From the NCBI RefSeq assembly GCF_036588685.1, contig NC_086386.1:21452001-21516000 (forward strand): a stretch of 64,000 bases of DNA, given 5' to 3'. The notes below the pieces were generated by a model. That model searched no databases and had not been told where the DNA came from. It worked only from the letters and a program-made list of their open reading frames with translations. Within the stretch, counting starts at the first letter, position 1. Every line of letters begins with the position of its first letter. This document shows, one piece after another, positions 23,165-56,161 of the stretch. This DNA is from Mytilus trossulus (lineage: Eukaryota). A program made the translations under genes and the position numbers.

Positions 23165-23442
23165 TCAGTTATGTATCGGTGGTAGCGGTTTAGTACGTAT
23201 GGCTGAGCTTGTTGGTGGTCGCGGTTGTTCGGGTAATGGCGTTAGATTTCTTCTCAATGCATCATTTAGAGGTTCTGGCTGTTGGTAAATCGTTGATGTC
23301 ATAGCAAATGGAGAATTGGAGTTTGCAAGATGCCTCGTCTTTTCATCTAAGGTTCTGTCGTTTTCCAGACATTCAACGCTTATTTTGTCTTGTCTAGAAA
23401 CCAGTTTTGGTCTCGAGTTATAATCATTTGAATTTGGATTTT
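23165..23442 (-). CDS. Gene A exon 11 (Pro-rich tail ending KPLPPIHN*)
   Basis: ttcttacag acceptor, open frame to TGA. Confidence 0.85.
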
Positions 23443-26400
23443 CTGTAAGAAATATAACTAATCGTTTCAATACAATTTATTTTTATTTTTATATAATGAA
23501 CATTAACAAAAATATTAACAATATACACACAGCGTGCAATAAGTATTAAAAATATTAACAAACAAATAAAAACAGTTAAAACTGATAACAAAAAACTTAA
23601 CGCAATTAACATCATATGTAATTTCTATTACTATATTGCTCCATTGGTATTGCCCTGTCACGTGGCGATAAAGAATCTACAACTAAATCATCCGACATGG
23701 TTGGTTCTCTCTTCAAATTTAATTCTGAAATGAAGAGAGAACTGCTGTTGTAGATCATCAGTATCGCCGCAATTATGTTTTATATTTACAAGTATAACCA
23801 TCTTATTTGTTTGTGTACTGTCAAAAGGTCAGATTGATGTCTTCTTCCACCGATTTGTTGTTTTATATTAAAATATCCCTTGGTTTTGTTTGTATGCTTT
23901 CATAACAGTTCATATTCATAAAATGTGTTTATAAGCGAATTAAATAATTATCTTCACAGCATGTTGGAATTAAAATAACAATTCGTGCATATTAAATAAA
24001 ACTTTTCTTTCCTAAGCTAGATAGATTTGTAAGAAAAATCATAAAAAAATTCCCTCTTTTATAACCACTGGTTCGATGCCTCTGCTGGTGGACATTTTGT
24101 CCCCGAGGACATCATCCGCCCAGTAGCAAAATTACAATTGGCAATGCATAAAATTACGAAGATGAGTTTTGATCACATCTGTTTTATCGAACTTGTAATA
24201 AAACAATTACAAATTATTCATATCTATATATAACGGTACATGTACCTGTAAAAGTCTAATAGTCGGCTGCAAACCAAATTTATGTGCCAAAAGATACGAA
24301 TTCAATTATCTAATTGTGAACTTATTTGTATGATATGAGGATTGGTGTATGTGCCTAAAACATCCGATAACTGGATAAAGTACAACCTTTAATAGTTTGT
24401 CTTTTCAATAATTACAATTTGTTTGTCGTTTATTTGTCCCTTACCTGAAAGTGTAAAATCTGAATCTGGTGGTAGAGGCTGCTTGATATCGGTGCAATTT
24501 CCTTTCATTGACTGTCTATGCTGAATTTGTGATTTCTTTCCTTTGAAGTATTTCTGATATATGAGGAAAGCAATAATAATGATAGCTATCAGCAATAGTA
24601 TTGACAGGACAGCCCCCACCACTGCTGCTGTGTTACTACCACTTGAAGAACTTTCGCCTGTTGAGGGGTTAGTAATGCTGCTATCGTTGCTAGATGTCGT
24701 AGGCATCATGGTAGTAGTTGAAGTCGTTGTTGTAAATACTGTGAAAAGGATATAAACTTTTCGATTAAAAGAACCATATACATTGTACATTCAAGAAATT
24801 AAATAATCAACGAATAACACATTTTATATAGGCGTGTGTGCAGCCTTCGACAAAACCTCGAAATTAAATATCCCTGAACATTAATACCAATGAAAATACA
24901 TGCATCCACCGAAACTTCAAGTCACATCAGTTTGCAATTAAGCTTTCCTATCATTGTCTTTTTTAAATTCAGGTTTATTGTCTTGTTGTACAGCATGTGT
25001 TTTTGCACTGTTATGTGTAATGTCCATAGGCGGATTCAGGAGGAAAACTTTGGTTGATTATAAAGGGAATCACTGAAGCATGACTGGAGTGCCTCCCTTA
25101 GGTCAGTCAACGCCCCCTCCCCCACCCCTTTATGAAAAGTTCTGGATCCGCATCTGATGTCATGCATGCTTAACATACTTATAAGGTCTAACTTTTTCTT
25201 TCTTAAGTGAGCGTATTATCAAAACGTTAAAAACAACCGATTATTTTTCAAAAGGTACCATATTTATTGTCTTTAAATAAACTCATCATATATACCAGGA
25301 TTGAGATTTTATATTTATGCCAGACGAAACCACCGAAATGTTATTCTTACCGAAGGTAAAACTATTGCTGGAATTTTCTATTGAATTTTAAAAAGACTAT
25401 GATCAGCAATTATCAATTAAAACAAATGATTAAGATATTGATTACTAGCATCTGTGAATGCATTAAAGGGCATGTGAATCTTCTTTTATATTCTATCTTA
25501 ACATAATTAAACACTGCCATAAAAGCAGGAGGTTTGGCTAGCCACACAATCAGGTTCAAACCACAATTTTTTCAAAATATCCTGTACTAAGTCAGGAAAA
25601 TGGCAATGTTTATATTACAGTTCGTTTCTGTGTGTATGTTACATTTTAGTGTTGGGTTTCTGTTGTGCCGTACTTCTCCTGTTATATTTGATGTGTTTCC
25701 CTCAGTTTTGGTTATGTAACCCGGATTTATTTTTTTCTCAATCGATTTATGAATTTCCAACAGCGGTATACTACTGTTGCCTTTATCTAAGCTTGTTAGA
25801 AAAACATTTAATTATATCTAAAACATCTAAAAGCTCTTAAAGACTACTTACGACATGTTTCTGAAATAAATGAAAAACTAGTCATTAGTGTAATCAGAGA
25901 TAATTAAAGACCGATATGTTTCCGATTGTTTTCTCGTGTATTACTTCGGGATTAAAAGACTAGACAAATTGTTTCGACCGTTATATTTGTCCATAATAAG
26001 GTGCCATACAATTTAGAGTATTCAATTACAAAAACACGACTTGTATGCGAGTTGTTTAAAATCCAGTGAAATGACAATCTCAGAATTCAAATATGATTAT
26101 AGCTATTAAAAAGTCTACTTAGAAATAATGATTTGGCTAAAAGAATTCACAATTATGTGTACTTCGATATTTGAATTATTAAGAATAAAAATATGGGTGG
26201 CATTGGTTGTATTTAAGAAACGTAAAACGTCCTCGTGGATATTTAGTTTAAAAGATTTTTATATTTGCATCTTTTTATTTACAATACGTATGTGTTCAGA
26301 TACGTTTATTTGTTTGGAACCAGGTCTTCACTATTCAGTTTTGTGATTGCATATTGTGTTACGATTTTAAATGTAACGGATCAGATCAACGGCAAATAGT

Positions 26401-29400
26401 ACGGTAACCGTTGTAATTAAATAGCAGGAACAATACACAACATTTAGTATTGTTCAAAAAAATTTGCAGACAGTTTCAGTTTATTACAAAGCATTAAATT
26501 TCATTTACATAACATCAGTTTGGTTTTAAAAATAACATACCATATTCTGTCAACGTAATGAGTAAACTGTCAGCATGTGATGTTCTACTTGATGGAACTT
26601 GATTAGCTGCACATCCGCCAGGATTTGTACTAATGGAACGAGAACTACCAGACTGTAATACCGCCTGAAAAAATAGCTTTCTATAAAAAAGAATCTGCAT
26701 TTACAGTTTGTAATAGTTATGAAAGGTACCAGGACTGTAATTTAAGGATGTATTCTCCTGTTCAGTCTCGTTGTAATCTTGTTCTTAAATTATTTCCAAA
26801 ACATGTGATACAAGTGGACAACATGAGTGAATTTTAACAAATATTATAATCAAACATAACTCTGTGAAAAAATTGTGTATTTACAATGAATGAATTTCGA
26901 GTAATCCAGTTTTCAAATTTTACAACCAATCAATAGATATAGGAAGATGTAGTGTGTGCCAATGAGACAACTCTCAATGCAAATAAGAATTTAAAAAAGT
27001 AAACCATAATATACAAGTCTGTATTTTTAGCCAAAATTTTGAGAAAATGGGTGATCGATACAAAAAAATGATTTTAAAAGAATCATATACATCCAATATC
27101 ATTTTGGTCTTTTCAAATTTCTTAGATATGTATTTTTTTCAATCATTTATACCAAAAAAGTTGAAATACTATGCATTTTGTTCTTAAAACTGCGAAAAAT
27201 CACAAAAATTACAAATTTGACAGCATTGTAAATTGTACACAAAAAGCGTCAAAATATGATTAAACTTTCTTATATTAACGCCTACCTATAGTTTTTTTCA
27301 AGTAAAATTTATTCAGATTGGCCTACTTCATCTTTATAGAAAGTATGAAAAAAAGTTTAGTTGTGGAACTGTGATTTTTTTCACGATAATAACCCAAAAA
27401 TAAGTAAAAATCGATAAAAAATGTGAAATCATCAAAATTGTGCATTTTCAAAGAGCCGTAGCAAAAAAATAAAGTGTAACACCAAAGGATTTTTTCTTTA
27501 CCAATTGTTTTGTTACAGTCTTATAAACCCAAAAAATCAGGTTAAGGAAAAAAAGTTTAATTCTAGAAATGTTTGGCTCCTCGAAGGTGTTCACCCTTAA
27601 TACACCAGACGCTCGTTTCGTCTACATGAGACTCATCAGTGATGGTCAGATCAAAATAGTCATAAAGCCAAACAAGTACAAGGTAAAACTAACAGGTTCT
27701 GAATATAATATATATATCGCAGAAATAATGAAATATGCTTTGTAAGCTATACAACAAATTATCTATACAAAATATAAACATAAACAAACTAAAAATAAAT
27801 GCCATTATCACAAATGTGTGAACTGCTCAACAAATCTGACTACCAATTTTCATTTTCGTTAATCAAAATCTAGTAAATACAAGCTTTTGAACATGTAGCT
27901 TAGCGTTTGTTTTTTTTTTTTTTTTTGTAAATTCGGTATTATTTTGAAAAAATATAAAACTAAGTAGCAAAATCAAAAACCCAGAGCATTTTGTTGTCTA
28001 TTATGTCGAAGAATATACGTGAAGAAGGTCGATGCTAAAAAAATATAAATGTCAATCAAATATTCGTCTTAATATGCTTTCATAAATATCAACGAAGACT
28101 GCTTGACATCCTGCTTTAGTCGTTGTGAAGCTTTAGTGAATTGTAAAATTTTGCTTCATATTTAACACTGTGGCTGTAAGATAACTAAAAGCAGTCAAAG
28201 TGCAGTTCAATTGCCTTTTCTTATCATCTGAAACCAGCAAAATGATTCTTAAAAATGTATTATGGTTAATTGTACTTACAATACATGTGAAAATTGGAGC
28301 TGTTCCATCAGAATTTATCAGAATGGTGTAGTATGTTGATCCAGTAGCAGTCACATTTGCCACATTATAGAACAATCCGATGGCTAGAAAAACAGATTGC
28401 AAAATAGGTTATACATAAACTGATCCAAACTAAATGGGATTTGAAATCACGTAAAAGACCTATCGGTGCACTACGTTTGATATCGACTCTTTGCACGGAA
28501 TGTTGTCTCTTTGATATAGTCCTCTTTTCCGTTCTTTTTTTCGAGTGCATACATTTATATTAAAAGTTCTCAGTGAATGCAGAACTCAAATAAAGGTAAC
28601 TGTTTTGAATTTGAATATGGGAAGCTACTCGACATTTGTTAACACTAAATTAGATTAAATATGCATTAAAGAAATAAAAAAAACAGTTTGATACACGAAT
28701 AAATGTGTTTGTTCGAATTCAATTTGTTATAATATAGTTTTTCAAGTAAGGAGATATTTTTCAAAATAACTTGCAGATCAGAATTTGGTGCTTTCGTTGT
28801 TTGTTGTTGGTCAGATGTTTTGCAGATTTATTACTGACTTTGTACCGATTGTTCATGTATATTGCACTTGTTCGGACTTTTTTGGTTTGTTAATAAATTA
28901 CAGATCCAGTTTCATTTGACTGACTTTTTGAGGAATTACAATTAAATGTTCATGTTCGGTCCTTTGACCTATTATGAAGTATAATATAAGGAGAACTATG
29001 TGTGTCCAGCCTATAAATATTATATATATTCGTGTCGAGTCGGTAAATATATGTTTTTCTAAATTGTCAATAGCTACCATTGCAGAATGAAATGTTAGAC
29101 ATGTTAGATGAGCAAGTATGATTTAATATTTAATTTATATCAACAGAAAACATGATTTCGCGCATCTTAGCAGCATAGGGGTAAACACGGCCATTCTCTG
29201 TATACATCTCAGCGGTCGTCAAATTAATCTAATGAAACTTCCTGTGCCTCTGTTAGCTTTGAGAATATATTATTACCTTTTTTTTTATTATCCAAGCAAA
29301 CAAGTCTATATAACCAGTGAAATGATAAAAATTAAATTAAAAAAAAACACAGAAAAGCTTTACTTACTATTTTTTGTAAAATTATGAAACAGCAATAACC

Positions 29401-32400
29401 AATACAATTTTTAAACGTGAAAATCAAATTTTGAATTCAACAAGAAAAGAACTCACTGGAACCCATAACCGTTGTTGCACAAGTTGTGTAGTTTAAAACA
29501 GCAGTGGTTCTGTCTATATCTCCATTCACATAGCATCCGTCCCAGACAGATCCTGTTCCACATGATGTACTGGAACCGTCATTAACAGTGTAGGAAAACA
29601 CTCCAAGAAGAGGATCAGGAAAGTACTGCTCGAGGTGAACAGATTGTTGCATATCTTTAAAAAATGTTAGTTATTGTCAATTATTGTTCTTTTTCAAATA
29701 ATACATGTAGATGACGAAAATGAGGATGGCTGTTGACAATGGCTGGTAAATTTACTGCATATTTTCGATAAGAAAATTCAGATTAACCTTTTGTTTATTT
29801 TATTTTTTGTTTCTAAGATTTTCCTAATCATATCATAATAGTATTTCTTGTGTTACAAGATATTCCATGTTATACGTGACGGTGTGATTAAGGGTATGCA
29901 TGCTTCTGCCGCCAATTAATCTCAGAAATTGCTAGTTCTTATTCGATATTCTTTACATATGAATCTGTTTTGTTCACACTAAACCTATAGTTAAATTCAA
30001 AGGATTGTCAAATGATTTAAAAGTATGTAAATCATTTAATACGAATGCACCATACATTATAATTTATTTGAATTTAAGCAAAACACGATGATTTTCAGAT
30101 AATATAACGAATTACTAACTTCATCATTTTTACTCACTTTCCTTTACTAAAACATTATATTCTCCTGTGGCTGGACCATTCGTATGATTACAATACTGTG
30201 CAGTACTAGTGTAACTTGGATCTTGTAACCGATCTAATAGGAAAACTCTCTGACCGGTAAAATCTTCCACATCTGGGAATAGAAAATAGTCTAATCAAGA
30301 CGATGTACAATAACGAGCATAACACACTTTATTCAACCGATTTCATGAAATCATATAATGTTGTGTGTAAATACTATGATGTGTATTTTTGGATAACACA
30401 GGTGTCAGTACCGCGCTGGCGCTTGCGCCCGTTGTAAAGGGGTAGATTCACAATTAAATATATATATATATTGAATAATCATATAAAACATATTACCCTT
30501 TCAAAAGGGCCTTTGTAAACCTCATCGTTTTTTTATAGTTTATTTATGATCGCCGACACAAAATAGGACTTTGCTAATTTATTGTTGAAGATATTTATGC
30601 AGAAACTGCTGCAATTTTGTTAAATACGTTGTGTTGTCGTCGTGCAGAAACAAATGCATACATTGTAGATACTTTCAGGCTACTGGCCTGTTTGAAGTGC
30701 ACAATATGTTTATGTAGTTGATTTTATGTAATATCAATGATATCAATGTGTTTTGCCATGATATGAATAGGAGGCAATATTTTTGATATGTATTAACCTT
30801 AATGAACAACAAACGAAAATGTAATGACAACTTACTAGACCGCACATAATATGAATAGCTGTTGGTTGTTAGGCTACTATATTCCAGACAATAGACGGCA
30901 TAATAATCCACTCCGAACAAATGATTGTGAGTATCACTTCTGTTAAATTAAGACATGTAATTAAAATTAATAATTTTAACCGACCAATATTCATTATAAT
31001 TTTTTAGATTATTTCTTATAAATTATGCATATTGATGATTTGTAAATGATTAAAAATGTTAAACATCAAATAAGTCAAGCACCTGAGATCACCCCCAGTT
31101 TTGGTGGGGTTCGTGTTGTTTATTCTTTAGTGTTCTATGTTGTGTCATGTGTACTGTTGTTTTTCTGTTTGTCTTTTTCATTTTTAGCTATGGCATTGTC
31201 AGTTTATTTTCGACTTATGAGTTTGACGGTCCCTTTGATATCTTTCGTCCCTCTTTTTCAATATACATACATCGAGATAGAGACCAAAGACACACTCAGA
31301 TAATTATGATTATTTCAACAGACACTAATATTCCTTCAACAGACACTAATAATACTTCAAAAGAACTTATAGGCCAACACCAACAAACCATTCTATAATA
31401 TTAAAACCATCAATAATTCTATGTGAATAAGCACATGGTATAATACTAACTTTTAGCACTTATTCGAAATCATTTTAAATCGTTTTTAACATTAAACTGG
31501 TGGTCAAGATCTTAATAAGGTGCTATTATAGTATTCTTTTATATGTCTTTATGAATATAAATTTTACTGATTAGTCTCAGTGTTATTTTGGTGGTATCCA
31601 TTAGATGTGGCTCTGTACTTATACATCCCGTTATTGTTATACGATATTGTTTGTATTATTGTCTCTCAATTTTGTTAAATTATGCTTTTTCTGTATGCCT
31701 TTATGTGTTTCTTGGTTTCTTATGAAGCCACGGTGGCTCTGTACTTAAATATCCCGTCATTGTGTAATGTTCATACGATGATATATGTTGTTTGAATGTG
31801 TGTCTTTTTGTGTAGACAAGACTAACAAATGTAAACACAAGACTAGAGCAAATAGTCTGACCACCCCAAGGATCTCTCTATATATATATATCTTACATAT
31901 GTCGTATCTCGAAAATCAAAGAGCAAACGCATATCACGTATCAACTGATATACGTTTACTACTTACAAATCACCACCCCCTATGGATCCATTGAGGGTTA
32001 GTAAACTTGAAGGGATTAGAATAAACACAAACAATGAAATGCAATAAGATTTAAAAATATTGAAATAGAAGACGTGACGTCATGATACCCGTATCAAATA
32101 GACTGACAGGCCTAACAGGATCAATAGGGAGTCGGCATTTTAACTCTGAAGGAAAGTTGTCTCATAGACAATAATTCTCACCGTTCTATTTTTTTTCTGT
32201 GCTACAGCTAATTGAACATGTGTAGTGTAAAATATAGTAAAATATAGTAATTCAGTTTCCTGTGTATTTTCTATCTCAAAAAAGTGGACGATACGTTGTC
32301 GAAATCTTGAGTTAATATACGTGCATTTTTTATTTGTTAATCAATTGTTTTTAACAGTTACAGCGGGTAAGCGGGAGTAGACCATAGATATTCACAAAGA

Positions 32401-33773
32401 ATTCTTTTCGAATGTTTGTGAGAATTAAAGAAAATTTTACCATTTTTTTTAATTCTTAAATACAAGAGTTTAATTCACGCCATTGAACTAAAAGATCATA
32501 CCGAAATACTAGATAAGAGGAATCACTTTCAACACAGGTAAAAGTGTTCCATATAGCAGCATTGATTGTGAGTTGCCAGCCACTTGAAACTGCCAATGAA
32601 TTAAAAGTAACAACTCCATTGGTTCGACTGTCCCACCAATTTCCTGTCAGTTGTGACGGAAGAGTACAAGCACATTCTGGAAAAGAATGAATAAATTGAA
32701 AAATATCTATTGTCTCTTTCTCTTTATTTTTGTTTACTGAAATACACGTGTTTCCTGATAAATTCTTGTGAACCAACTTTAGACTTTTTTAATTAAATCA
32801 TTCGATTTGCCCTATTCATGAGTCGTATACGACATCTTACTGTACAGCTGCCGATATCAGATTGTGAGAATATACGATTTCTTGAAACTTTTGAACTTGC
32901 TTTCAAAGACGTTGAGACTATTTTGCAGTAAAAAAACAAGGACACGTTGGTTATGAGACAGTATTAACTGAATGACAAAAATAACCAAAACTTATTAAGC
33001 AGCTCAATACAGAATTTATTTCCACACACACGGTTAGAAAATTGTTTAAAAGATACTAGCTTTTTGTGCAATATATTTATTGTTGAAAGGACAAGGCAAG
33101 AAAGGGCCTGTGTTTGGCCCCCCTATTTTCTAATTTTTCAAATTCTGTTTTGGAAAGCTACTAATCTTATAGATTTGAAGTTTGTTTGGATGAATTTTAA
33201 AACCATTATTTTCAGAAAAAAGGGTGAGGTGAGTGGGTAAAAGGGCATAAAAAAACGGCAAAATAAGGGAAAAACTTACGATTTTCTGGTCATTATTTCT
33301 TAACATTCGATAGGGTGCGCCTACGTGACCAAAGGAATGTTACGTCGATTTAGACAGCAAAAACAGTGCTAATGACATTGGTGGGGCACTTAAAAACTAA
33401 AAATTCGTGGTACAAACACCTTCATTATGAATGATCATTACAATATTTGAATAATAACAGAAAGTTTACCCCCGTCACCAAAATTATTGGTTTTCAAGTT
33501 CATCCAAACAAACTTCAAGCATCAGGGAATATTTTAACATAATGAATCACTGTAGCTTTCCAAAACAAAATTTGAAAAATGAGAAAATAGGGGGCCAAAA
33601 AGGGCCTTATCGTACCTTGTCCTTTCTAAAATTAGCAGGTATATACGGTGAGTATTATTGCAAGACTAAGTACACTATCATTACAGTTAGATAGTTCAAT
33701 ATAGTGACTTACCAAATTCAGTAAGAAATGTAGAGAAGGAATAAATTACAATAAATGATATTCCTCTATACAT
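23165..33773 (-). CDS. Gene A: uncharacterised type I single-pass membrane protein with Cys-rich (DUF7044/DUF7042-like) ectodomain, 11 coding exons, ~524 aa
   Basis: Exons 33773-33713, 32676-32502, 30939-30836, 30272-30138, 29654-29457, 28383-28280, 26664-26541, 25860-25852, 24738-24445, 23724-23632, 23442-23165. All introns are GT-AG with compatible phases (1,2,1,1,1,0,1,1,1,1); 1575 nt open to TGA. Exon-by-exon homology to gene B. The domain name is from recalled motif pattern only. Confidence 0.88.
23632..23724 (-). CDS. Gene A exon 10 (cytoplasmic, LNLKREPTMSDD...)
   Basis: Strong acceptor tctcttcatttcag; weak A|GTAATA donor in the required phase. Confidence 0.65.
24445..24738 (-). CDS. 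Gene A exon 9 (Ser/Thr stalk, TM helix, basic stop-transfer)
   Basis: ttttcacag / GTAAGG; TM AAVVGAVLSILLLIAIIIIAFLIY followed by QKYFKGKK. Confidence 0.93.
25025..25156. mobile_element. Small MITE with hAT-like ends (cataggcggattcag...ctggatccgcatctg)
   Basis: Imperfect 15-bp TIRs; atgtc directly repeated on both sides. Confidence 0.65.
25515..25787 (+). repeat. Interspersed repeat, cctgtaccaagtcaggaa family
   Basis: Matches 14755-15037. Confidence 0.75.
25852..25860 (-). CDS. Gene A exon 8, 9-nt microexon (E-T-C)
   Basis: tttatttcag|AAACATGTC|gtaagt; counterpart at 44443-44451. Confidence 0.85.
26541..26664 (-). CDS. Gene A exon 7 (AVLQSGSS...GGC...LTEY)
   Basis: ttttcag / GTATGT; phase 0-1. 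Confidence 0.9.
26746..27596. mobile_element. Non-autonomous DNA transposon with TTAA target duplication (Kolobok-like GG...CC ends), inserted in another repeat
   Basis: TTAA at 26742-26745 and 27597-27600. Joining the flanks restores the actcatcagtga-family repeat seen uninterrupted at 55313-55390. Confidence 0.72.
28280..28383 (-). CDS. Gene A exon 6 (IGLFYNVANV...FTCI)
   Basis: ttttctag / GTAAGT; 104 nt as in the paralog. Confidence 0.9.
29457..29654 (-). CDS. Gene A exon 5 (FPDPLLGVFSYT...WDGC...NYTTC...GS)
   Basis: aaag / GTGAGT; homologous to 47803-47982. Confidence 0.92.
30138..30272 (-). CDS. Gene A exon 4 (VEDFTGQRVF...CNHTNGPATGEYNVLVKE)
   Basis: ttcccag / GTGAGT; paralog ends in FHVLVKE. 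Confidence 0.92.
30836..30939 (-). CDS. Gene A exon 3 (SDTHNHLFGVDYYAVYCLEY...YYVRS)
   Basis: aacag / GTAAGT; 104 nt, same length as the paralog exon. Confidence 0.92.
31078..31258 (+). repeat. SINE-like interspersed repeat (agcacctgagatcaccc family)
   Basis: Reverse copy at ~57130-57340; partial copies at ~44940-45070 and ~49455-49585. Confidence 0.7.
32502..32676 (-). CDS. Gene A exon 2 (ECACTLPSQLTGNWWDS...CVESDSSYLVF)
   Basis: ttttccag acceptor, GTATGA donor; homologous to 54810-54987. Confidence 0.92.
33085..33626. mobile_element. MITE with ~130-bp terminal inverted repeats in gene A intron 1
   Basis: gaaaggacaagg...ttttggaaagctac...gtttgtttggatgaa versus ttcatccaaacaaac...gtagctttccaaaa...ccttgtcctttc. 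Confidence 0.85.
33713..33773 (-). CDS. Gene A exon 1 (signal peptide MYRGISFIVIYSFSTFLTEF)
   Basis: acaatATG start, hydrophobic peptide, G|GTAAGT donor in phase 1. Confidence 0.78.
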
Positions 33774-34404
33774 ATTGTATATGCCAGCTTAAATCACTCT
33801 CGAATTATAATCTTCATTTTTTTTTTTTATTAAATATTATGATTATGACTATATCCCTGCGTTACACGAAATGAAAATCACCAGTCCGTATTATTGCTTT
33901 AAGACAATGGAAAATGAACTTAATTGTTTTAAATTCAATGGGACGAGATTCTTTTGTTTATAAGTTTGGTCGTAAATGGGTGAAGAATATAAATTATGAG
34001 GTCATCTTTAATCTTATATTTCAAGATTTAGACGGGATTTTCTTTTAAGTTTAGCAAAAGTGCTAACAAGTTTAAAGTTCAAAGCACGCCCTGAATGATT
34101 AGGTTTTCACTTTTTCGTTTTCATTGAATCAGATCCCTTTCGATTGATTTTTCTAACCCAAATTTTTACATGTCAACAAATTGAAAATTTTAATCTTAAA
34201 TGTTATACACAGATTAAGATGATAACCATCCTGATATAATGGAAGTGCATTGTATCAAATTTCACATATGTTCATACCTACCATTTCCTTCCAGTAATAA
34301 GTAAAGTTGAATCACTCCATAAGTTATCTTTCTGAGAATTTCAAACGTGCGCTTTGTTTTTCGTTGAACTGACATTTTTTAATAATTGAATTTTCATTTC
34401 CGAA

Positions 34405-34816
34405 CTGCGAGTACTGTCAGATCTGTACTTAGTGTCTTTTTGTTGTTGGGATGTACAAGTACCCGGCCACGTCCACATGTATTTGTATTTTTATCCATCT
34501 GGTATGTTTAGACTTTTTCAACTGATTTGTATAGTTAGTTCTATATTGTACTGTTGCATTACTGTTCCAGATTAGGGACAGTTGGGATCCCGCTAATATG
34601 TTTAACCCCGCAACATTCTCTATATGTGTGTCTGTCCCTAGTCAGGAGCATGTGATTCAGTGGTTGTCGTTTGTTTTTGTGTTTTATATTTGTTTTTCGT
34701 TCATTAATTTTGTACTTAAATTAAGCCGTTATAGTTTTCTCGTTTTAATTGTTGTACATTGTAAATTCGGGGCCATTTATGGCTGACTATGTGGTATGGG
34801 CTTTGCTCGTTGTTGA
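34405..34816 (+). repeat. Interspersed repeat (gggatcccgctaa..tgtccctagtcaggag family)
   Basis: Similar to 13185-13380 and 37405-37445. Confidence 0.7.
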
Positions 34817-36940: not shown

Positions 36941-36944
36941 TATA

Positions 36945-37245
36945 CGATGATGACGACTGATGTTCCCATATTTTGACTATTTTATTGATTGTGACTGTTT
37001 ATTTAACGCATCATGTAAATGTAACGGAATTTGATGAGACTGTTATTAAAGTGAGAGGGTTAGCGCTATAGAACCAGGTTTAATCCACCATTTTCTACAT
37101 TTTAAAATGCCTGTACCAAGTCAGGAATATCACAGTTCTTGTCCATTCGTTTTTGATGCGTTTTGTTTTTTGATTTTGCCATGTGATTATGGACTTTCCA
37201 AATTGATTTTCCTCTGAGTTCAGTATTTTTGTGATTTTACTTTTC
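36945..37245 (+). repeat. Interspersed repeat, cctgtaccaagtcaggaa family
   Basis: Matches 18700-18995 and 49285-49444. Confidence 0.75.
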
Positions 37246-40675: not shown

Positions 40676-40797
40676 TTATGTTCTTGTAATTGATGGTAGT
40701 GGTTGATTTTTATTTTCATCCAGAGGTGGAAGCGAGTTATTCTTTTCTTTTGGCGTCTGTATATCAACTACGACCTTTGGAGATGATGGATCGATCG
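40676..40797 (-). CDS. Gene B exon 11 (IDPSSPKVVVDI...QPLPSITRT*)
   Basis: ttgttacag acceptor, phase 1; C-terminal motif resembles gene A KPLPPI. Confidence 0.78.
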
Positions 40798-43700: not shown

Positions 43701-46700
43701 AATGGCTGCTGTCACTTTAACGTATAACATAATGGTCCTTCTATTATTCAATCATAAAAAGTTATTTCCAATTTATTTCTTACCGTCAAAACCTTAATCT
43801 AGCAATTGGTGACAGAAGAACAGTTTACCTTACTTAGAATATCGACCCAGTTTCAAGCTTCAAAATGCATGAATGCTTCAATAATTTCTTATTTGGTACA
43901 TTGTTAATATGCACGCTTGTAATTTGATATATCATTTACCTGGTTTTTCGGCATTTTCCTCTGATCCATTCTGTACTTTTGATTTTTGCCACGGGAACGG
44001 TTTTTTCTTATATTTATGGTAAAATATAAATCCACCAATAGCTCCCGCTATTAAAAGGATTAGTACAACAACTACGCCAGCTATAATTCCTACATTAGAT
44101 GAGGAGGACGCGGCCGATGCTGTCGTAAATGCTGTATAAACAGTAAAAAAACTAACTTCTAAATATGCACAAACCTTGAGTAATGGTTAAAAAAATGGGT
44201 ATATTATTAAAACAAATACACTTAAAAAATTTCAACAAATTTTAATTTAAATAAAGGAATAATAATATCTTGAAGGTATGTGTTTTACATGAAAATTTTA
44301 TGTTGGTTATTTGTTAGTAATATTTTTCCAATTGCGCAAATTTATAAACGTAAATCTTTTAAAGTTTACTAGAATATTCCTTTTGACATTTTTATTTACA
44401 TACAAGATGAAGAAAACAGAACAAAAATCATGATTTACTTACGACAGGTTTCTGGAAAAGAAAAAGACAAATATATTAGATAATTGTAGCTATCAACATG
44501 ATCAAATAAGACATAAAAAGAGCAATACACACACAAATACATGTACATAAAAGTACGTCCAAATCTAACATTATGCAATATATAGATATCTGTGTGTGAC
44601 TATAAAAGCTTTCAATTGGTAAATGAAATAAGTATCGGATCGTTCAAAACGGTGATGCTACAAAAACAGGAATAAAATATGAAAAAAACATTATGAAGAT
44701 TTGCTACAATAAAACTGATCTATAAAAAAAATCATATACAAATCGGATGAATGAAATCATATAGACAAATATATGTCGGCGCAAATGCCATTCTTCCTTG
44801 TTATAATCTTCGAATTCTGTACAAATTATCTTTCAACTGTTCCTCAAATTTGATTATCAGTAATTCAAAACAAACAGTGGACCTATTTTACGATGTTGTG
44901 ATACTTGGATCTAAGGGCAATGTTTTGTTTATACGACGAAACACGATCGACCCTGTCTTTTAATTGTTTGTCATTCACTTCTGATTCGCTGTTTTAATGT
45001 TTGAAATTTGCCGAGTCAATTGATCTCTACATGAGTTTTGAATGTCCCCTTAGTATCTCTTCCTCCTGTCCCTTTTTTTGTAAGGAGAATGCATAAAAAA
45101 TGTATTGGTAAAACTAAAATAGTTGTACTTATGACAATGGGAATACCAATAGAACAATGACTAAAAACCATTAATGATCAAACTATGTGTATGCTGACAT
45201 TAAATATTGCCTACCGTAAGCTGATAGCGATATTACAACACTTGATGAATCTGATGTATTGGTAGTGGCGGACTGTCCCTTTACACAGCTTCCTGTATTG
45301 GAGCTGACTGAAGAACCTGATACAGCCTAAAATTATTTTACATAAAATAGTTATAAAAATATCTTGACGGAATTATCAACCTAATTGCCTGACATAAAGT
45401 GAACGGTTGTTATGTATTAACATTTGTCTTGGCGTTACAAGATATGAGTTAATTAGGTATATTGGTTATAGAATCCGTTAATATATTTATCTCGAAACTT
45501 GCATTGCATATTCAAATATAGCTATGATAAGTGCATATAGTATTGCTTTTGACATTTGGAAATGTAATTATTGTTGTGACAAAGCTCAACATATGTTAGA
45601 TGTGTTGTTAGTTTATATATTTAATTATCATATGAATATAATTACCAAACAGGTGAATCTTTTACTCGTAGACGAATCTGCATTGATAATGATAACATAA
45701 CTAGTAGATCCAGAAGTAACGTATTTTGTGGCGTAAAACTCACCACCGGCTGCAATAAAAGAAATACTATATTGTCATTCAGATTGAATTAAAAATAAGT
45801 AAAACAACAGTTGTAATAGAAACTGTGTTCTCTTTAAACTTATTACGTGGTTTTTATGGCATTTTTCTAGCACTTTTATGCAGGTTTTTGTTTGTCTTTT
45901 CTGATGTTCTCTCCGCCATATTTCTATTGATTTGTCGTCAACTCAAGCTAACTCATGGATTAAGAATTACCCATGGTATCTTTTCTGTTTTTGTTTTGAA
46001 CTAAGGTATCTAAATCACAGGCATGTAGTATTGTAACTTTACAAAACATTATCAAATGAGCACAGAAAAGGACACTTTTTTTAATATATATATTTTTATT
46101 TTCCTATCATTCCAAAGTCTCATCTACAAATACAGATGTAATAAGTATCAATATCTGACCATTTTCTTTTTATCTTATTACTTTATTTTTCGAACACAAC
46201 TTATAGAGCCCATGTCAATCCTATGATAATATCTAAGCCATTCAATTGCTTCAGTTACAGTAGACTGTAAATCTTACTAGACATATTAGTAAATATATAT
46301 TTTCAATATCGGAATACATGTATTACAAATATCTTTAAATACATGATATGTTATCATTCAAGATTATACCTGATAAAGATGGGTAAAAATGATACTACAT
46401 AAAACCTCCAATTTAAAAAAAAAAGTTAAATCTGATTGTTCGAATATATCCTCATTCAAAAAGATATGTATAGATGTTTCTTTTGTTTCTGTACAAAACG
46501 TGCACAGTTCTGTTTCACATTTCATAAGTTAAGTAATATTTGTTCCTAGAGTTCTATGCAGCAATCTACATTGAAATGCCCTCAATGAGGGATCATTGGT
46601 TATAAGTAAATGAAGACTAAAAAAACTCCATTCTTTAGCCACAATATCGATTCCTAGTTTTATTTTTTTCATTTTGCTTGTATGAGAGATGGAGTTTCCT

Positions 46701-49700
46701 TCATTGATAAGGTGACTTTTATATAAACTTTAAAAGTCTCATTTTCATTCAAGTATTCTATATTTTGAAGATGTATGTGTACTGAACTAGAACTTTTTTA
46801 AGCACACACTGTATTCACACTAAAATATATTTTATCTACTACTGCATCGAATGTTCTATGATATTTCACAACTCGGGGAGGTTCAACTCACAAGAAAAAA
46901 CGCTAGGTTCATCGATCGTTCTAAACATTCAAATTTTAAATGGTTTTATTTCTTTTTTTCTAATAATCTGTAAAGATATGTGTTCTCTCTTTGTCACGAT
47001 ATCAGACATTATCGCCTTTTTCGTGCCTTCACAAAAGAAAATTCAGAAGAAAGCAAGAAAAGTTGACATCATAATTAATTTTTGATCGATATTGAACTGA
47101 GATCAAATAAACCACAAGTGAATTAGATAAAACCATACTCTTATTATTAACAGGCCAGGAAAGTGATCAATCAGCTTTATAAGATTAAGAGAATGCCTTT
47201 TAAGAAATATTTTACGATATAAAAAATAAATAGGATATAAGACAACAAATACGCCAAATTGAAAGGTGAATTTTTTTAACAATACATAGAGAAAAAAACC
47301 CACATATGTTTGTTCTAGAACGATCGTTTTATGGATTTGGTGTCTCAATAATGTGTTTTAATCATTTCCTAAATGCATAAGAAAACAATAAAAGCACGAA
47401 AGCAGTATAAGAGACAAGCTAATTATCGGCAGTGACTAAACAATAAGAACTAAACAGTGGCTGTTAGCAACAACAAAAAATGGTTTCAACTAAGCTGTAT
47501 AAGGATTCGATGAGAAAAAAATAACGTTAGATACCAATTAAAATGCTTAAAACATTTCGGAAGTATCATTCAACAGGTTCGCTTCCAAATAAAGACAACA
47601 AAACAAGAACATAATAGAGTATTTTTTGGATAAAATTAATCGTGTCTTTACAGAATGGTATAGTTGAACAAATCTAACTATTGAAAATTCGCTGTAATAT
47701 TGCAGTCGTGACACGTCCATTAATTTTGTTATGTCAAAATAAGAACTTGTGACGTCTGTATCTTGACAAACGCTGAGATGTTCCAAACTTTAATATACTT
47801 ACTAGAACCAAACATTTGTGTACTACATTGAGTATAGTTAAATGAAATCGTTGTTCTATTTGTACAAGCATCCCATACAGAACCAGAACCACAAAAGACG
47901 GAGGATGAGGCATCTGTCACTGTGTAAGCGTAAACTCCCAGCAGCGCATCAGGGAACCATTGCTTAACGTCTGCCTGATGATCTGGAAAAAAAACCGTAA
48001 CATTTACTGAATTAGTATACGGTTGGTGTCATTGATGATGTATAAATGCCTATAGCATGCTTAACATTTTTGTATAAATTAACAGTCGTAATCTTGTAAA
48101 CCATTATATAATTAAGAGGCTGTCCAAGTAAATATCAGGCAAATCCTGTGATATGGGTGGCACATCATAATTTTATTCCCACTAAATTTTTGGTTCCGAT
48201 GCAATGTTTATATCATACAAAGGCTATATATGTCAAAGATATTTCTGAATCAACTGTGGATGGCTCAGAAAATGATTTTAAAGTTCACTAACAATGCAAC
48301 ACAATTTTGTACAAAATGAAGAGTTATCTCCCCTTTTCAATGAATTTTCAGTGCTTTCTATGTATTTTTTTCTCTTTATTTGTTGCAGTTAATAGAAAAA
48401 CAAAATTCAACTTTCAGAAAGAATGAATTTATGATATGAAATAGATGAAATCATTTTAAAAACAAAATATGTCTTGTGCCATCCACTGCCTGGTTTTTCC
48501 ATGGACACCCTCTTAAAAACACTATTGTGTAACTCTAAAAAACATGATAAAAACTAAATAAAGTCACCATCTTTGTCTTTTTTTATTATTTTTTCTTGTT
48601 GAAATTTTGACCGAATGTAAGAGAATGTGGATTTACAAATTTTATAACGTAACTAAATATAGAAACAAGGAAAAGTGCTAATACCTGCAAATATTGTAAA
48701 ATAAAGTGAACGTATAGTAAGGTAGAACAAGATTTATGACAAGCAGAATAATTTAAAAAGAATAAGAGCCTCAAACATTTTGTAGATCAGCAGTTGATTG
48801 GTGTCATAACAACTAGTTCTTCCGAGGCTTACGATCAAGAAAATAACACCAACTTGGAAGCAAATGACTGAATCAATTTAAAGGATGAGAACTTACTCTC
48901 TTTCACTAAAACATGGAATTCCTCAGCACTTGGTCCGGAGGTTGGATTACATACTGAGCTTATTGTTACTCCAGCATTTGCAACAGATTCTTCAATGAAT
49001 GATATCCGCGTATCGGCTGCGTTTTCTTCCGTATCTAGAAAAAGACAAATATACCTTAAACGTAATCTGACGTAAATGAAAAAAAAACTAGTTTCTTCGT
49101 TTAATTCTTTAGCTTCACTGATAAAACACAATATATCTTCAAATACACATTCACATAATAGGAATTAATAACAATGAAAAATGTTTAAAAGAAATTTTAA
49201 AGATGGGTTAGCGCTATAAAACAGGGTTTAAAAAGTAAAATCACAAAAATACTGAACTCAGAGGAAAATCAATTAGGAAAGTCCATCATTTTCTACATTT
49301 GAAAATGCCTGTACCAAGTCAGGAATATGACAGTTCTTGTCCATTCGTTTTAGATGCTTTTTGTTATTTGACTTTGCCATGTGATTATGGAACTTTCCGA
49401 ATTGATTTTCCTTTTAGCTCAGTATTTTTGTGATTTTACTTTTTAATTAAAGGTTAGTCTTTAGTGTTCTGTGTTTTGTAAATTGTTGTTTGTCTCTTTT
49501 GGCCTTTTTCTTCTTTTGAAGAAATGGGAAATACATATTCGACTTTATCAGTAAGAATGTTCTATTGTCATCTTTCGCCTCTCGTTTGTACGCCATATGT
49601 CTTATAAAATTCGTATATTTGTTCTGTTGTCAATGAGTTGATCAAATAACATGTATTATTTTTTCTTAGCAATTTTATTCTATTTAATTATCCCTTATAC

Positions 49701-52700
49701 AAAAACAGTGTGGCAAAGAATAAACTAACATGAGATCGATCTATTTGATGATAGTTTTAGGATGAAAATTATACATATAAACTATTCGAAAGTTACAAAT
49801 CTATAAAAACAAAATGGACGCGTATATATATCATTTTGTAAAAGGGACACGTTTTAACTCTGTCTCACTACAATTCAACATCTAGATGTACTCAGATGTT
49901 TTTGCAGGACCTAACAAAGAGAAACAGAAGTACAACAAAAATATATGTATACTCACTAGAATCAAGATAATAATAATAACTGTAGTCTGTTATTTTAGTA
50001 TATCTCACACAATAAAATCCGTAATATTTAGGTCCATAAATTTCTTCACTGTTGGTACTCCTGTAAGTATAGTTCGGTCATTATGAAGATTAAAACAAAA
50101 CAAATAATCATTCATAACCGACAATTAATAATAGTATGCATGTACTAGAAAGTATTGAAGAATGAACAATGAACCATAGTAAGGAGAACATCAATACATG
50201 TATGATAAATTGAATCAGCGATTTACTTCAAGATTAGACATGGTAATTATACTGGAAGTGCACCAACAAAAACTTAATAATACGTGGGTTTTTTTCTCTA
50301 TAACGTAAACATTTCCACACTAGATCGATTGTTTTGGTTTTGTATTATTTAGTTAAAATCGTGTTCTAATTTTTTTGACATTTACTATTTTTAATCAAAA
50401 ACAAGACGAAAAATGCAACATAAAAACGTTATGAAAGTCATCAAATATCTAATTACAAAAACTATAATCTTAATTTAACATTGATTGCACACAAGCAGTT
50501 GTTTTATGGGACTTGATCAATAAGAATGACATATTAAATATATATTCTATAAATTGTCATTCCAATTGCTATTTGTGTGTCTTAATCAAAAAATGATTTT
50601 TTTCATTTAACAATGTCCATAATTTGAAATGAATAAGAAAACACACTAAATATTACTTTTTCTCTTTTTCATGGATACACGGTTTGTACGACAGACAGAA
50701 GAGCGTGACGTCTACACAAGATTCATCATTGACGTGTGAAGCAAGCGAAAATAGCCAGACAACGTATGAACTTAAAGATTATTGAGAACCTGATGAGATA
50801 CTTGTTTGGCAATATTATAACTTTCATTAAATGTTCATGATTCAGACAAATTCTTACAAATATTTAATTAAACACAATCTTCCTTAATATCTTTTGAAAA
50901 GAAGAGACTCGCTTAGATTTCATGGCTATAGGTCATCGTTCGGCCTTTAAAAATAAGCAAAGTCTTTACCACTTAGTCAGGAATTATGTTATGTCATGTT
51001 AAAACACAAATCAAGAAAAAATACTATAATAAGATAAAGTCTTTTAAGACAGACAGCTAGATACCATAAACATACTACGTAAACACAAGCCAGAGTCTGA
51101 GCTTGATTTGCTATATGATATAAAAACTAAACTGACGAAAAAAGGTCATTTATTCAAAATCATAAAATGCAAAAAATACATTTTGCAAATAAAACATTTG
51201 ACATAAAAGTTCATATTTAATATGAAATAATAATACATAATTACTACGAAATAACATCAACTAATATCATGTCAATTGAATAAATGACAAAGAATAGCAA
51301 AGGTGGGGAGAAAAACCTGCCCCATAAATAAACATATATAGTATTACATATCTATTCAAAAGATAATATAAAGGGCGGTATGTGGGTGGGAATTTTGAAC
51401 AAATTGTTTGATAAAAATCACAAGTTAACACATCAAATGCTGATGATAAAAGGAAGTGACCACAATGCACTTACACGTGAACTCGTGCTGACCCGCAATG
51501 CCATTGACCAATAAGAAAGATGATATCCGGTCATGCATTGTTCATAAAAGAAATTTCTCTGCACGTGAAAACAAGTTATCTAATTTCAACAATTTATCGT
51601 TTAATTAAGTAGGACACTCTGACCCTTTGCCCAGACTCGGGACATTATACACTTACAGTAATAATAGATCACTCTTTTATTTAAGTCGGTTAGTAATAAC
51701 CAATTAAACAGAATTATCTTCTCTGCTGTCTTAAATTATTTTATTCCGCTTAATTTTCAATTAGCAAATAAAACTGGTTTTAAGACAGACAGCTAGATAC
51801 CATAAACATACTACGTAAACACAAGCCAGAGTCTGAGCTTGATTTGCTATATGATATAAAAACTAAACTGACGAAAAAAGGTCATTTATTCAAAATCATA
51901 AAATGCAAAAAATACATTTTGCAAATAAAACATTTGACATAAAAGTTCATATTTAATATGAAATAATAATACATAATTACTACGAAATAACATCAACTAA
52001 TATCATGTCAATTGAATAAATGACAAAGAATAGCAAAGGTGGGGAGAAAAACCTGCCACAAATCCACCCTTTGGCTGAAAGAGTGGATGTGAAATCCACT
52101 CTAAGGCTAAAAGGGTGGATCCCCCCATGTATCAAAATACTGGCAATTTTGTATGAAGTTAAAGAATTGATTACAAAATTAATTTATTCCAAACCAATCA
52201 CCATGACGAAAAAATAATTAAATGTAGTTTAGCATGAGTTTCATGGCGAAGCATAAAACAATACAGAGATCATAGACCAAGCTACTACGACCTCTGCAAA
52301 AATATAACATGCGTTTCATGACGAAGCATAAAACAAAACCCACTACATATTAACTTTACAAAAGCAAATACACAAAGGTCATAGACCAAGCTACTACGAC
52401 CTCTGAAAAAGTAGCATGAGTTTCATGACGAAGCATAAAACAATACAGAGATCATAGACCAAGCTACTACGACCTCTGTAAAACCGAAGCAGCATGAGTT
52501 TCATGACGAAGCATAAAACAATACCCACTACATACTACAATATTTGCAAAAGTAAATACACAGAGGTCATAGACCAAGCTACCACAACCTCTGAGAAAAA
52601 TAATACACAGAGGACATAAGTACAAGCAACCATGCCCTCTGCGAAAATTTTAATATCGTCCACATTACCCAAAACAGGCAAAGACAGGTAAATTGGTTCG

Positions 52701-55700
52701 TAATAAATAAGCATTGGGTTGCGGTAAACATATAGGTAAGAGACATATCCTTTTTATACCGATCACATAAAGCAAACAAGGTACACTTGCATAAATTAAA
52801 ATACTAACAATTATAGCGATTAGGCTAACTTGCAAAATTATGATAAGCTCAAACCAAACTGCTGTGACGAGATTTACGAAAGTAGCATGAGTTTGTATGG
52901 TATTATTATCGTTATGCAATAACCCAATTTTTACTTGTAGTAAAATTTAAACGAATCATGTATCTTACAAATACATAAGGCGGATATACGTTCTGCAAAC
53001 ATTATGATGCTGTAAAGGATGCAGTAACTTGTAAAATTACAATCAGGTTAATCATCAGATAAATGATAAATAATTACATTTTGATCGCAAACGCATAGTG
53101 TCGGCACCCACATGAAAATCAAATTGACCCAATATCTCTTTCACAAAGAAATGAATTTGACCAACTGCTCATGTTTGGCATAAATCTATATAGTGAGTTT
53201 TATCCGAATGAAAGGATGGTTAAAAAAATTAACTGTACGTTTGTTCAAAATGTAAGCATAGAATAGCTTAAAAATAAAAGTATAGTTCGATTTTACCTGA
53301 AATAGCTAAAATGAAATCACTCCAGTCCAAAATTATCCATAAAATAAAAAACAAAATCACATATAATTTTGAACAAATTGTTTGATAAAAATCACAAGTT
53401 AACACATCAAATGCTGATGATAAAAGGAAGTGACCACAATGCACTTACACGTGAACTCGTGCTGACCCGCAATGCCATTGACCAATAAGAAAGATGATAT
53501 CCGGTCATGCATTGTTCATAAAAGAAATTTCTCTGCACGTGAAAACAAGTTATCTAATTTCAACAATTTATCGTTTAATTAAGTAGGACACTCTGACCCT
53601 TTGCCCAGACTCGGGACATTATACACTTACAGTAATAATAGATCACTCTTTTATTTAAGTCGGTTAGTAATAACCAATTAAACAGAATTATCTTCTCTGC
53701 TGTCTTAAATTATTTTATTCCGCTTAATTTTCAATTAGCAAATAAAACTGGTTATATGTCATTATTACAATTTTTACAAGTGAAATGCAGCTAGAAATAA
53801 TGAAATGTAATACCTATTTTATTCGAAAAAGTAATGCAAGAAAATGCAGAAACGTAAAACTGGAATTGTGCTAAAATTGCGGAAGCGTAATACGCCCATG
53901 TAAAAATAATTGGATTTACTATTATTACTAGTATCTAATATCAACAGTGAATACTGTTTTGTTTTAACATATAATGTTAATAAAATTGAGAATGGAAATG
54001 GGGAATGTGTCAAAGAGACAACAAGTATGTATAGGGGCGATCCGTAATTCGGCTATATTAGAACATGGCTTTTATGGATTGAATTTAGTTAACACATATT
54101 TGTTACGAGAACATTAAGTTTTGCATGTGTATTTACCGCAAAAATGTCCAATTCATAATGTTGTCCGGGGAAATAAACATGTTTACTGGTTATGGTGTCC
54201 GAATTCCAATGACGAGACGTCATTGCTGCTCTTTAACGACATGTACAATAGAAAACAATGATGGTGTTCGTTTAAGTTCTGGTACAACGGCTTCTAGTGA
54301 TAATGTCCATTAAACAATTATCGACGTAGCCCCAGTGATGCCAATTTTTTCGATTTTTTTGTTTTACCACATTCATATATATACAAAAATAAGGCGAAAT
54401 TTAACAATAAACTTGAATTTAGTAAATGGAAACAAAATTATTGAAAATGAGATTTATCTTTTTAGATTTACTATACCATAATACTTATAATTGGACTGGT
54501 TTGTTTTCTTTATGCAGAACTTACACATGTGATCAACAAATATGATATGGCTTTATGCTGATATGGAGGTCTCGGGATGATATCAGGGCCAATATTGAAA
54601 AGGGCATGTCATAATCTACAAATATTGTACAGACATAAATCATGCAAATTATGATATATGAGTGTTTCTACTTTTAAATTACATATTGGCGTGTTGTAAA
54701 TGATTCTCAAACTGCCATTGCACGAAGTATAAACAAATTAAGTTAAACCTACCTCATATTAAAGTTAAAATCACACTCTGTCCTATAGAAATTATTATAA
54801 GAGACTTACTGAAATAACCAATGAGTGCTGTCACTTTCAATGCAATTGAATATAGTCCAACTTTTGGCAAGTACTGAAACATCCCATCCAGATGAAAATT
54901 GTGAATTACTATTTGAAACTACAATAGTGCCTCGTCTACTGTCCCATATATTTCCATCCAATACCGTTGGCAGTGTGCATGCACATTCTAAAAGAAATAA
55001 GTTAACACAAATGAAGATTATCAATTTAGGGTATATTGATGACGTCAGTTTGGCAGTTCTATTTGGTTTTGTGCTATTTTTTATGGACCATTCATTTAAT
55101 ACCTTTAGATTTTTATATTTTTATGACAAAAAACGGGAGTTAAGCTCAATACTGATGATTTTCTAAAGTTATGGCGATTGATTAATTACCAAATGACGCT
55201 TTATCTCGTGTTCATGCCAAAATTTATAAACCATTATTATTATACATTTCACATTGAAAAAATTGTGTCAATGTTGAAAAACGAGATGATCACTTTTGTC
55301 GTTTAGGGAGTAAACAGTTATCATAAGTATCAGAATTACAATTTAGTACGCCAGACGAGCGTTTCGTCTACGTAAGACTCATCAGTGAACTCATTTGAGT
55401 CTTTTGTAGACGAAACGCGCGTCTTGCGTATATACTAAATTCAGTCCTGGTATCTATGGTGAGTTTATTGAAGAAACAAAACTACAATAACCAAACAAAA
55501 AACTTACTTGTTGACAGCAAGAATGACAAATTTCTATATATAACAGCATATTCATTTATCTTATCATACTTTATAGCATTTATTTTGACATAGTTTTGCA
55601 ATTGCTAATATTTATTTTATTATTTTACATAAAAAAACAAACTAAAAATAAATGAAGAGAAATTATTAAAATGATGAAACCTCTTTTGAAATTATTTCAA

Positions 55701-56161
55701 ATTACCCTAAGTCTTTCCAATTTTTTGTGGAAAGACCTATTGTATTTGGTCTGAAATTTTGCGTTATGTTTTTGTAATTCATAAACTGTTAATCTTATCC
55801 ATCTTACGTCTTTTTGTTGAAGACATTTGTCCAAATTTGAAAATTAGATCTACGTCAATGGTTAAGGTCATGTTATCACTTTGACTTTTTTAACTGAGTA
55901 CCTCATAAAAAAGGTTATTAACAATTTACAATATGCTATTTGTTTTTGTATTCAAGATAAATATATTTAATTGATGGATACTATTTCATTTATACAATTT
56001 AGATTTATGAGGTAATAGTTAACTGTTGAAAAATACGCGTGTGAAAAGATTCTTTACCAAGTGATGATAAGCTAATTGGCATTGCATTATATGATAAAAC
56101 AACATAAGATACCACAAAAAAAAAACAACCAATAACAACAAAACACTGTCTTATTATACAT
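40676..56161 (-). CDS. Gene B: paralog of gene A, type I single-pass membrane protein, 11 coding exons, ~414 aa
   Basis: Exons 56161-56113 (tentative), 54987-54810, 50060-49957, 49034-48897, 47982-47803, 45749-45646, 45326-45215, 44451-44443, 44131-43940, 43379-43323, 40797-40676. GT-AG introns with the same phase series as gene A; all 10 mature ectodomain Cys conserved. Confidence 0.85.
40996..41297 (+). mobile_element. Non-autonomous element with ~150-bp palindrome plus CCAAT tail
   Basis: Reverse-oriented copy at 56522-56825. Confidence 0.8.
43323..43379 (-). CDS. Gene B exon 10 (DGSSTERNNRRSIIFESTI)
   Basis: ttcttaatag / G|GTAAAT; symmetric phase 1-1, position equivalent to gene A exon 10. 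Confidence 0.65.
   Translation of the reverse strand: MDRPLKEITDVVLYLNLP
43940..44131 (-). CDS. Gene B exon 9 (short stalk, TM helix VGIIAGVVVVLILLIAGAIGGFIFY, HKYKKK)
   Basis: tttatacag / GTAAAT. Confidence 0.92.
44443..44451 (-). CDS. Gene B exon 8, 9-nt microexon (E-T-C)
   Basis: cttttccag|AAACCTGTC|gtaagt. Confidence 0.85.
45215..45326 (-). CDS. Gene B exon 7 (AVSGSSVSSNTGSC...LSAY)
   Basis: ttttag / GTAGGC. Confidence 0.88.
45646..45749 (-). CDS. Gene B exon 6 (GGEFYATKYV...RFTCL)
   Basis: ttttattgcag / GTAATT; 104 nt. Confidence 0.9.
47803..47982 (-). CDS. Gene B exon 5 (WFPDALLGVYAYT...WDAC...NYTQC...GS)
   Basis: ttttccag / GTAAGT. Confidence 0.92.
48116..48512. mobile_element. 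MITE with GAG...CTC ends and TTAA TSD (Sola-like) in gene B intron 4
   Basis: ttaa|gaggctgtcca...tggacaccctc|ttaa. Confidence 0.78.
48897..49034 (-). CDS. Gene B exon 4 (TEENAADTRISF...CNPTSGPSAEEFHVLVKE)
   Basis: tttttctag / GTAAGT. Confidence 0.92.
49957..50060 (-). CDS. Gene B exon 3 (STNSEEIYGPKYYGFYCVRY...YYLDS)
   Basis: cttacag / GTGAGT; 104 nt. Confidence 0.92.
51044..53753. mobile_element. Two tandem copies of a TTAA-flanked element (GACAG...CTGTC) with identical ends and different interiors
   Basis: 51044-51321 = 51780-52057 (offset 736); 51391-51779 = 53365-53753 (offset 1974). Confidence 0.8.
52231..52640. repeat. Tandem repeat with alternating short and long units (~182-bp dimer)
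   Basis: catgagtttcatgacgaagcataaaaca...catagaccaagctactacgacctctg, four copies plus a remnant. Confidence 0.85.
54810..54987 (-). CDS. Gene B exon 2 (ECACTLPTVLDGNIWDS...CIESDSTHWLF)
   Basis: tttcttttag / GTAAGT. Confidence 0.92.
55313..55470. repeat. Two inverted, abutting copies of the actcatcagtga-family repeat
   Basis: tacgccagacgagcgtttcgtctac..gactca / tgagtcttttgtagacgaaacgcgcgtcttgcgta. Confidence 0.75.
56113..56161 (-). CDS. Gene B candidate exon 1 (MYNKTVFCCYWLFFFC)
   Basis: ATG plus hydrophobic peptide and a phase-1 but weak G|GTATCT donor. The frame depends on a 10-nt homopolymer. Confidence 0.45.

Follow-up and report, generated by a model that had tools for sequence, protein, structure and literature searches.

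Which proteins are encoded by a tandem pair of cysteine-rich genes in the mussel Mytilus trossulus, and do the two genes form a system of their own? The pair lies in a 64,000-nucleotide stretch of contig NC_086386.1 (positions 21,452,001 to 21,516,000; here called the window), and the original prediction described it as hidden from the open reading frame track and as a paired cell-surface receptor or adhesion system. Our preferred reading, which we hold at about even chances, places genes A and B, both intact and spliced, as paralogues in the large mollusc DUF7042 family of single-pass membrane proteins; each product is predicted to have two barrels and is likely to be an independent orphan receptor binding through loops of the outer barrel.

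Gene models and transcript support

Every motif quoted in the prediction was found twice, both times on the minus strand. Splice sites were read and then checked by script, giving 11 coding exons and 419 amino acids for gene A, and 10 coding exons and 493 amino acids for gene B (438 with an alternative last exon). Both reading frames are intact, and all introns in the exon tables are GT-AG. Coordinates below refer to the window unless stated; X1, X2 and X21 denote sources of transcript evidence.

Gene A
G000:C14:21523237-21523300 (window-equivalent 71237-71300, outside the window), minus: exon 1, 64 nt, signal peptide; 21/21 against the P0001 N-terminus, GT donor, phase 1
54988..64000, minus: part of intron 1 (whole 16.2 kb), exon 1 lying beyond the window
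54810..54987, minus: exon 2, 178 nt, predicted barrel 1 strands A-E; RNA joint to exon 3 in X1 and X2
49957..50060, minus: exon 3, 104 nt; splice sites and RNA joints
48897..49034, minus: exon 4, 138 nt, predicted end of barrel 1; splice sites and RNA joints
47803..47982, minus: exon 5, 180 nt, predicted start of barrel 2 (DUF7042); splice sites, Pfam and RNA joints
45646..45749, minus: exon 6, 104 nt; splice sites and RNA joints
45215..45326, minus: exon 7, 112 nt; splice sites and RNA joints
44443..44451, minus: exon 8, 9-nt micro-exon giving the last ectodomain cysteine; nine letters between exons 7 and 9 in contigs of X1 and X2
43940..44131, minus: exon 9, 192 nt, Ser-rich stalk, transmembrane helix (310-337 in the model) and basic stop-transfer stretch; RNA joints
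43323..43379, minus: exon 10, 57-nt tail cassette exon; in P0001, skipped by joint 40797/43940 (X1, one X21 read)
40676..40797, minus: last coding exon, 122 nt including stop, Pro-rich tail end; splice sites and RNA

Gene B
33713..33773, minus: exon 1, 61 nt, signal peptide; 20/20 against P0196
32502..32676, minus: exon 2, 175 nt; RNA joint 30939/32502 in X1
30836..30939, minus: exon 3, 104 nt; splice sites and RNA joint
30138..30272, minus: exon 4, 135 nt; 87% to P0183
29457..29654, minus: exon 5, 198 nt; X1 joint to exon 6, with 11 variant letters
28280..28383, minus: exon 6, 104 nt; splice sites and RNA joint
26541..26664, minus: exon 7, 124 nt; 88% to P0183
25852..25860, minus: exon 8, 9-nt cysteine micro-exon; present in P0044 and P0195, none among the RNA joints listed
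24445..24738, minus: exon 9, 294 nt, Thr/Ser-rich stalk, transmembrane helix and tail start; X1 contig piece 24445-24736
23612..23724, minus: alternative tail exon, by homology; terminal in P0044 (stop at 23612), short internal cassette in P0197
23165..23442, minus: last coding exon, 278 nt including stop, Pro-rich tail end; 83% to P0183, X1 contig piece 22600-23225

The common architecture claimed for the two genes holds: all nine shared introns have identical phases (1,2,1,1,1,0,1,1,1), exons 3 and 6 measure 104 nt and exon 8 measures 9 nt in both genes. The introns themselves have no alignable similarity, as blastn of intron against intron returned five matches of 34-55 nt, all between non-corresponding introns.

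At least seven splice joints of gene A are present in spliced contigs among those listed. Contigs of two runs join exons 2-3, 3-4, 4-5, 5-6, 6-7, 7-8-9 and 9-11, with the nine letters of the micro-exon in place in the 7-8-9 contigs and exon 10 skipped in the 9-11 joint. For gene B the spliced contigs show at least two joints (2-3 and 5-6, no others among those listed), and contig pieces also cover exon 9 and the last exon. The RNA status of the runs is a presumption; the joints nonetheless fall at canonical splice ends. Exon depth is almost nil in two raw-read runs.

The 5' end assigned to gene A, at 56161, is probably wrong, because the first exon of P0001, a protein identical to that of gene A (419/419), sits outside the window, at window-equivalent 71300-71237. 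Judged from sequence, gene A thus probably extends out of the window. The same leader occurs in two M. edulis relatives with one substitution. The ATG at 56161 was considered as a candidate exon 1: it is open to four GT sites, yet no homologue backs it.

The pair is hidden from a scan of open reading frames, but not from RefSeq, where gene A is LOC134697578 (protein XP_063415932.1, identical) and gene B is LOC134697577, a 115-residue fragment (XP_063415931.1) that corresponds to its first three exons. A full-length gene B exists in M. coruscus (P0183, 438/490 identical). The residues of the micro-exon are absent from the database models P0002, P0004, P0008 and P0183. Our analysis extends gene B to a complete model and reveals the 9-nt exon to be missing from several database models.

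Several repeats occur in and around the genes. Window positions 12-8947 are taken up by about 207 tandem copies of a 43-nt unit, in which a higher-order period of about 2,889 nt can be discerned, and the array runs on past the window start; the long plus-strand open frames rich in His, Gln and Thr come from this array and are probably not genes. In intron 2 of gene A (51042-53756), 392 nt are duplicated at 99.7% (51391-51782 / 53365-53756) and 283 nt at 99.6% (51042-51324 / 51778-52060), representing either recent duplication or an assembly artefact. Dispersed inverted and MITE-like repeats in introns and intergenic DNA (33079-33632, 37069-38691, 40991-41302, 49228-49446 and 53979-54024) draw most of the mapped reads.

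Age of the duplication and extent of the family

The two ectodomains are 48% identical (129/271). From residue 23, 11 of 11 cysteines align, the first of which lies at the likely end of the signal peptide in a column that is mostly Gly, Ser or Ala in the family; this leaves the 10 that had been predicted. Synonymous sites are saturated (pS 0.77, pN 0.37) and both frames are open, in agreement with the proposal of an old duplication of which both copies stayed intact.

A profile search returned 592 clusters at E≤0.001, of which the best 150 were listed. The named relatives are proteins of mussels, oysters, scallops, clams and a snail, and Atlas clusters connect them to arthropod DUF7042/43/44 proteins. 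A membrane helix is predicted in 126 of 183 family proteins. Some relatives (P0038, P0172, P0046, P0106, P0143) have two double-barrel units flanking EGF repeats (called 'notch-like' by the source), Sushi repeats, or repeated units.

The contig of the window (C14) carries at least 12 loci with multi-exon family matches, three of which are clustered at 7.7 Mb. Another is a third neighbour of A and B: lying on the opposite (plus) strand, it ends about 7 kb short of the window and has the scallop protein P0127 as its best match. This neighbour (G000:C14:21,416,450-21,445,390; L029, L017, L016, L015) has a long tail and converges on gene B across the satellite. Single-exon matches also occur at 34.3 and 40.4 Mb of C14 and on C1, C2, C6, C8 and C26. 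Three matches at C26 563,944-1,320,469 mirror three at 39.88-40.42 Mb of C14 in score and orientation, and probably represent a second haplotype of that region.

A midpoint-rooted tree was computed for 145 ectodomains, leaving out 12 near-identical oyster and 27 partial sequences. Because A, B and two genes from 7.7 Mb form a clade (support 0.997) in which there are no named oyster or scallop sequences, the A/B duplication probably took place within the mussel lineage and predates the split from M. coruscus. Linkage of family paralogues may be older: the database records of the scallop proteins P0015 (A/B-like) and P0127 both give a contig of 591,364 bases, which suggests an arrangement common to scallop. 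In M. galloprovincialis, the B-type paralogue P0044 shares 60% identity with B; none of the loci found in the present genome corresponds to it closely, a possible case of copy-number variation.

Domain assignment and predicted fold

Assignment of the ectodomain to DUF7042 plus DUF7044 is supported for one half. DUF7042 (PF23069) matches domain 2 with 31.4 bits in P0001 and 30.4 bits in P0183, the orthologue scanned in place of B, above the cut-off of 27. For DUF7044 and DUF7043 (PF23071, PF23070), a Pfam scan gave no match in domain 1 of gene A, while exon 2 of gene B alone scored 14.2 and 12.8 bits, below the 27-bit cut-off (DUF7044, E 0.052). Relatives do pass it, P0143, P0145 and P0147 for DUF7043 and P0143 for DUF7044; with an Atlas feature score of 0.81, the assignment of domain 1 is a lead.

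As predicted, the family is not a characterised one, since database entries of DUF7042 proteins carry no function. Our literature searches, with PF23069, PTHR22255 and IPR055470 among the identifiers covered, found no paper on the family, its loci or its proteins; supplementary gene tables may nevertheless name the loci. PDB sequence searches with two profiles gave matches confined to membrane helices and tails.

The ectodomains of A and B are predicted to fold as two small lipocalin-like barrels; in the first structure model, built on 26 sequences, domain 2 came out unfolded. A type I membrane architecture is supported as well. Foldseek against the PDB and viral models found no match at E≤0.001. 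The structure model and the placement of cysteines suggest an internal duplication, for which hhalign of domain 1 against domain 2 gave 0.9%, not significant.

Tails and alternative splicing

The two genes had been credited with different signalling tails, a claim that was itself inferential. Neither tail contains a Pfam domain, and an ITIM-pattern scan found none in the A tail or in either B tail. Both have an optional exon and Leu-Pro-Pro/Ser motifs, which recur in 33 of 126 family tails and may bind SH3-type adaptors; a literature search with 'LPPI' gave nothing related among the matches listed. The A tail aligns with the B last-exon tail no better than with shuffles (121/500), and with the alternative B tail the figure is 14/500. 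In paired activating and inhibitory immune receptors, one tail carries an ITIM and the other protein has a charged residue in its membrane helix; the helices of A and B contain no charged residue.

Read-through at the micro-exon donors (44443 and 25852) meets a stop two codons on in both genes, and would yield a secreted ectodomain with all cysteines; the RefSeq models P0007 and P0195 end in this way. Such a switch would not be family-wide: among candidate micro-exons the stop is present in only 2 of 7, and among other phase-1 donors in 2 of 12.

Interpretation

According to our preferred reading, exons 2-4 would encode barrel 1 and exons 5-8 barrel 2 (DUF7042), with disulfides predicted to staple each barrel, followed by a Ser/Thr stalk, one predicted membrane helix and a tail predicted to be disordered and to have no enzyme domain, the whole being preceded by a predicted signal peptide. 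Barrel 2 may serve as a conserved pedestal, whereas barrel 1 would set specificity and diverge after duplication. A macromolecular partner would be bound by loops of the outer barrel, and the tail may recruit adaptors through short Pro-rich motifs, with the cassette exon as a tuning device.

The proteins could instead be tethered to the membrane in order to carry or trap a hydrophobic ligand, be it a lipid or, like Wnt, a lipidated morphogen, in the manner of APCDD1 (PF14921; PDB 8E0R; PMC10193966), whose two barrels and single membrane helix are matched by the prediction here. We consider this unlikely. The true APCDD1 lies on a different contig, C6, the only one matched in the genome search with PF14921 (167 bits), and PF14921 gave no match in P0001 at E≤5. 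APCDD1 is without profile similarity to A and B (hhalign probability ≤0.4%) and aligns structurally with one domain at a time, at ranks 15 and 50. The barrels here have about 130 residues, short strands and a large aromatic lining, as opposed to about 160 superposed residues per domain in APCDD1. At least 12 diverging, long-tailed paralogues would also fit a trap for a single morphogen poorly.

Diversifying receptors for immunity or self/non-self recognition, with the loops of barrel 1 as an anticalin-like binding site, seem improbable too, despite strong variation of the A type. Among six A-type Mytilus proteins, which are not necessarily orthologues and whose variants may be ordinary paralogues, highly variable sites number 25/135 in domain 1 against 9/136 in domain 2 (p 0.003), and those of domain 1 lie mostly in long loops (19/70 vs 6/65, p 0.008). 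Loop variation is common to any protein. Between two M. edulis A-type records, identity is 69% for domain 1 and 83% for domain 2, and in M. californianus a single locus has two isoforms that differ in exons 1-3 exclusively. The family is expanded and clustered, and PMC7653742 describes recognition genes as enriched among mussel dispensable genes. On the other hand, B-type domain 1 is conserved (93%), four oyster orthologues have no domain 1 bias by the same count, and the A type is present once in the window plus 40 kb upstream, where exons 2-3 have no spare cassettes. Neither tail offers an ITIM-like motif or signalling domain, and the linkage apparently common to scallop suggests stability. 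Further still from the likely is a new class of animal recognition receptors on tandem lipocalin-like barrels, whose outer loops would diversify by duplication and by swapping of exons 1-3 in mollusc immunity or self/non-self recognition.

Very unlikely, in our judgement, is a mainly structural role with little signalling, in which the proteins would be glycoproteins for adhesion or matrix anchoring and would bind either one another homophilically or the matrix. Several N-glycosylation sequons, the Ser/Thr stalks, relatives with tandem double-barrel repeats and EGF or Sushi arrays, and a matrix adhesin as the closest fold of the model are consistent with it, but the tail motifs are conserved, the tails are alternatively spliced in both genes, and depth in the two raw-read runs is low.

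Least likely of all is the original prediction's dedicated pair, a heterodimer or an activating/inhibitory couple: A and B are adjacent, intact and on one strand, both lack a cysteine pair kept in 93 of 126 aligned relatives, and in M. coruscus the A-type and B-type records both name a contig of 77,002 bases, probably a single one, yet A-B sisterhood has a support of 0.08, two mussel paralogues 14 Mb away share the clade, tandem neighbours are frequent in the family, as the third neighbour and the 7.7-Mb cluster illustrate, and the ITIM-like motif and membrane charge of paired receptors are missing. A complex prediction of the A ectodomain with that of the B orthologue scored 0.04 in a run without alignments and speaks neither way.

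The A/B pair is thus an ordinary old tandem duplication, with gene A already catalogued. It belongs to a family of hundreds of mollusc-type proteins, at least 12 genes per mussel genome, for which our searches found no name or paper, and which now has a testable shape: two barrels, a variable outer barrel, a cysteine micro-exon and a motif-bearing tail. Should the outer barrel prove to be under diversifying selection, invertebrate recognition would have gained a new scaffold.

Comparison with known systems

Outlier lipocalins and calycins, including Treponema pallidum Tp0751 (PDB 5JK2; PMC5040251), are among the closest known systems. The lipocalin motif SCR1 is a Gly-x-Trp on strand A (PMC5040251). 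Domain 1 of B carries it, as do 64 of 118 aligned relatives, and A has Ile in the Trp column; domain 2 has Gly-x-Phe/Tyr in 74 of 126. SCR3 is a basic residue of strand H that stacks on the SCR1 Trp. The last strand of domain 1 ends in Lys or Arg in A, B and 108 of 126 sequences, and domain 2 has none.

The two barrels of APCDD1 are about 25% identical, while those of A and B are mutually undetectable by sequence. The true APCDD1-family gene of this genome (L038, G000:C6:1,457,484-1,461,164) has two large domain-coding frames. Atlas models of arthropod DUF7042/43/44 proteins superpose on the mussel model with a TM of 0.62 over 234 residues; the arthropod form is a multi-domain protein of about 600 residues, whereas the mollusc form is a single two-barrel unit with a membrane helix.
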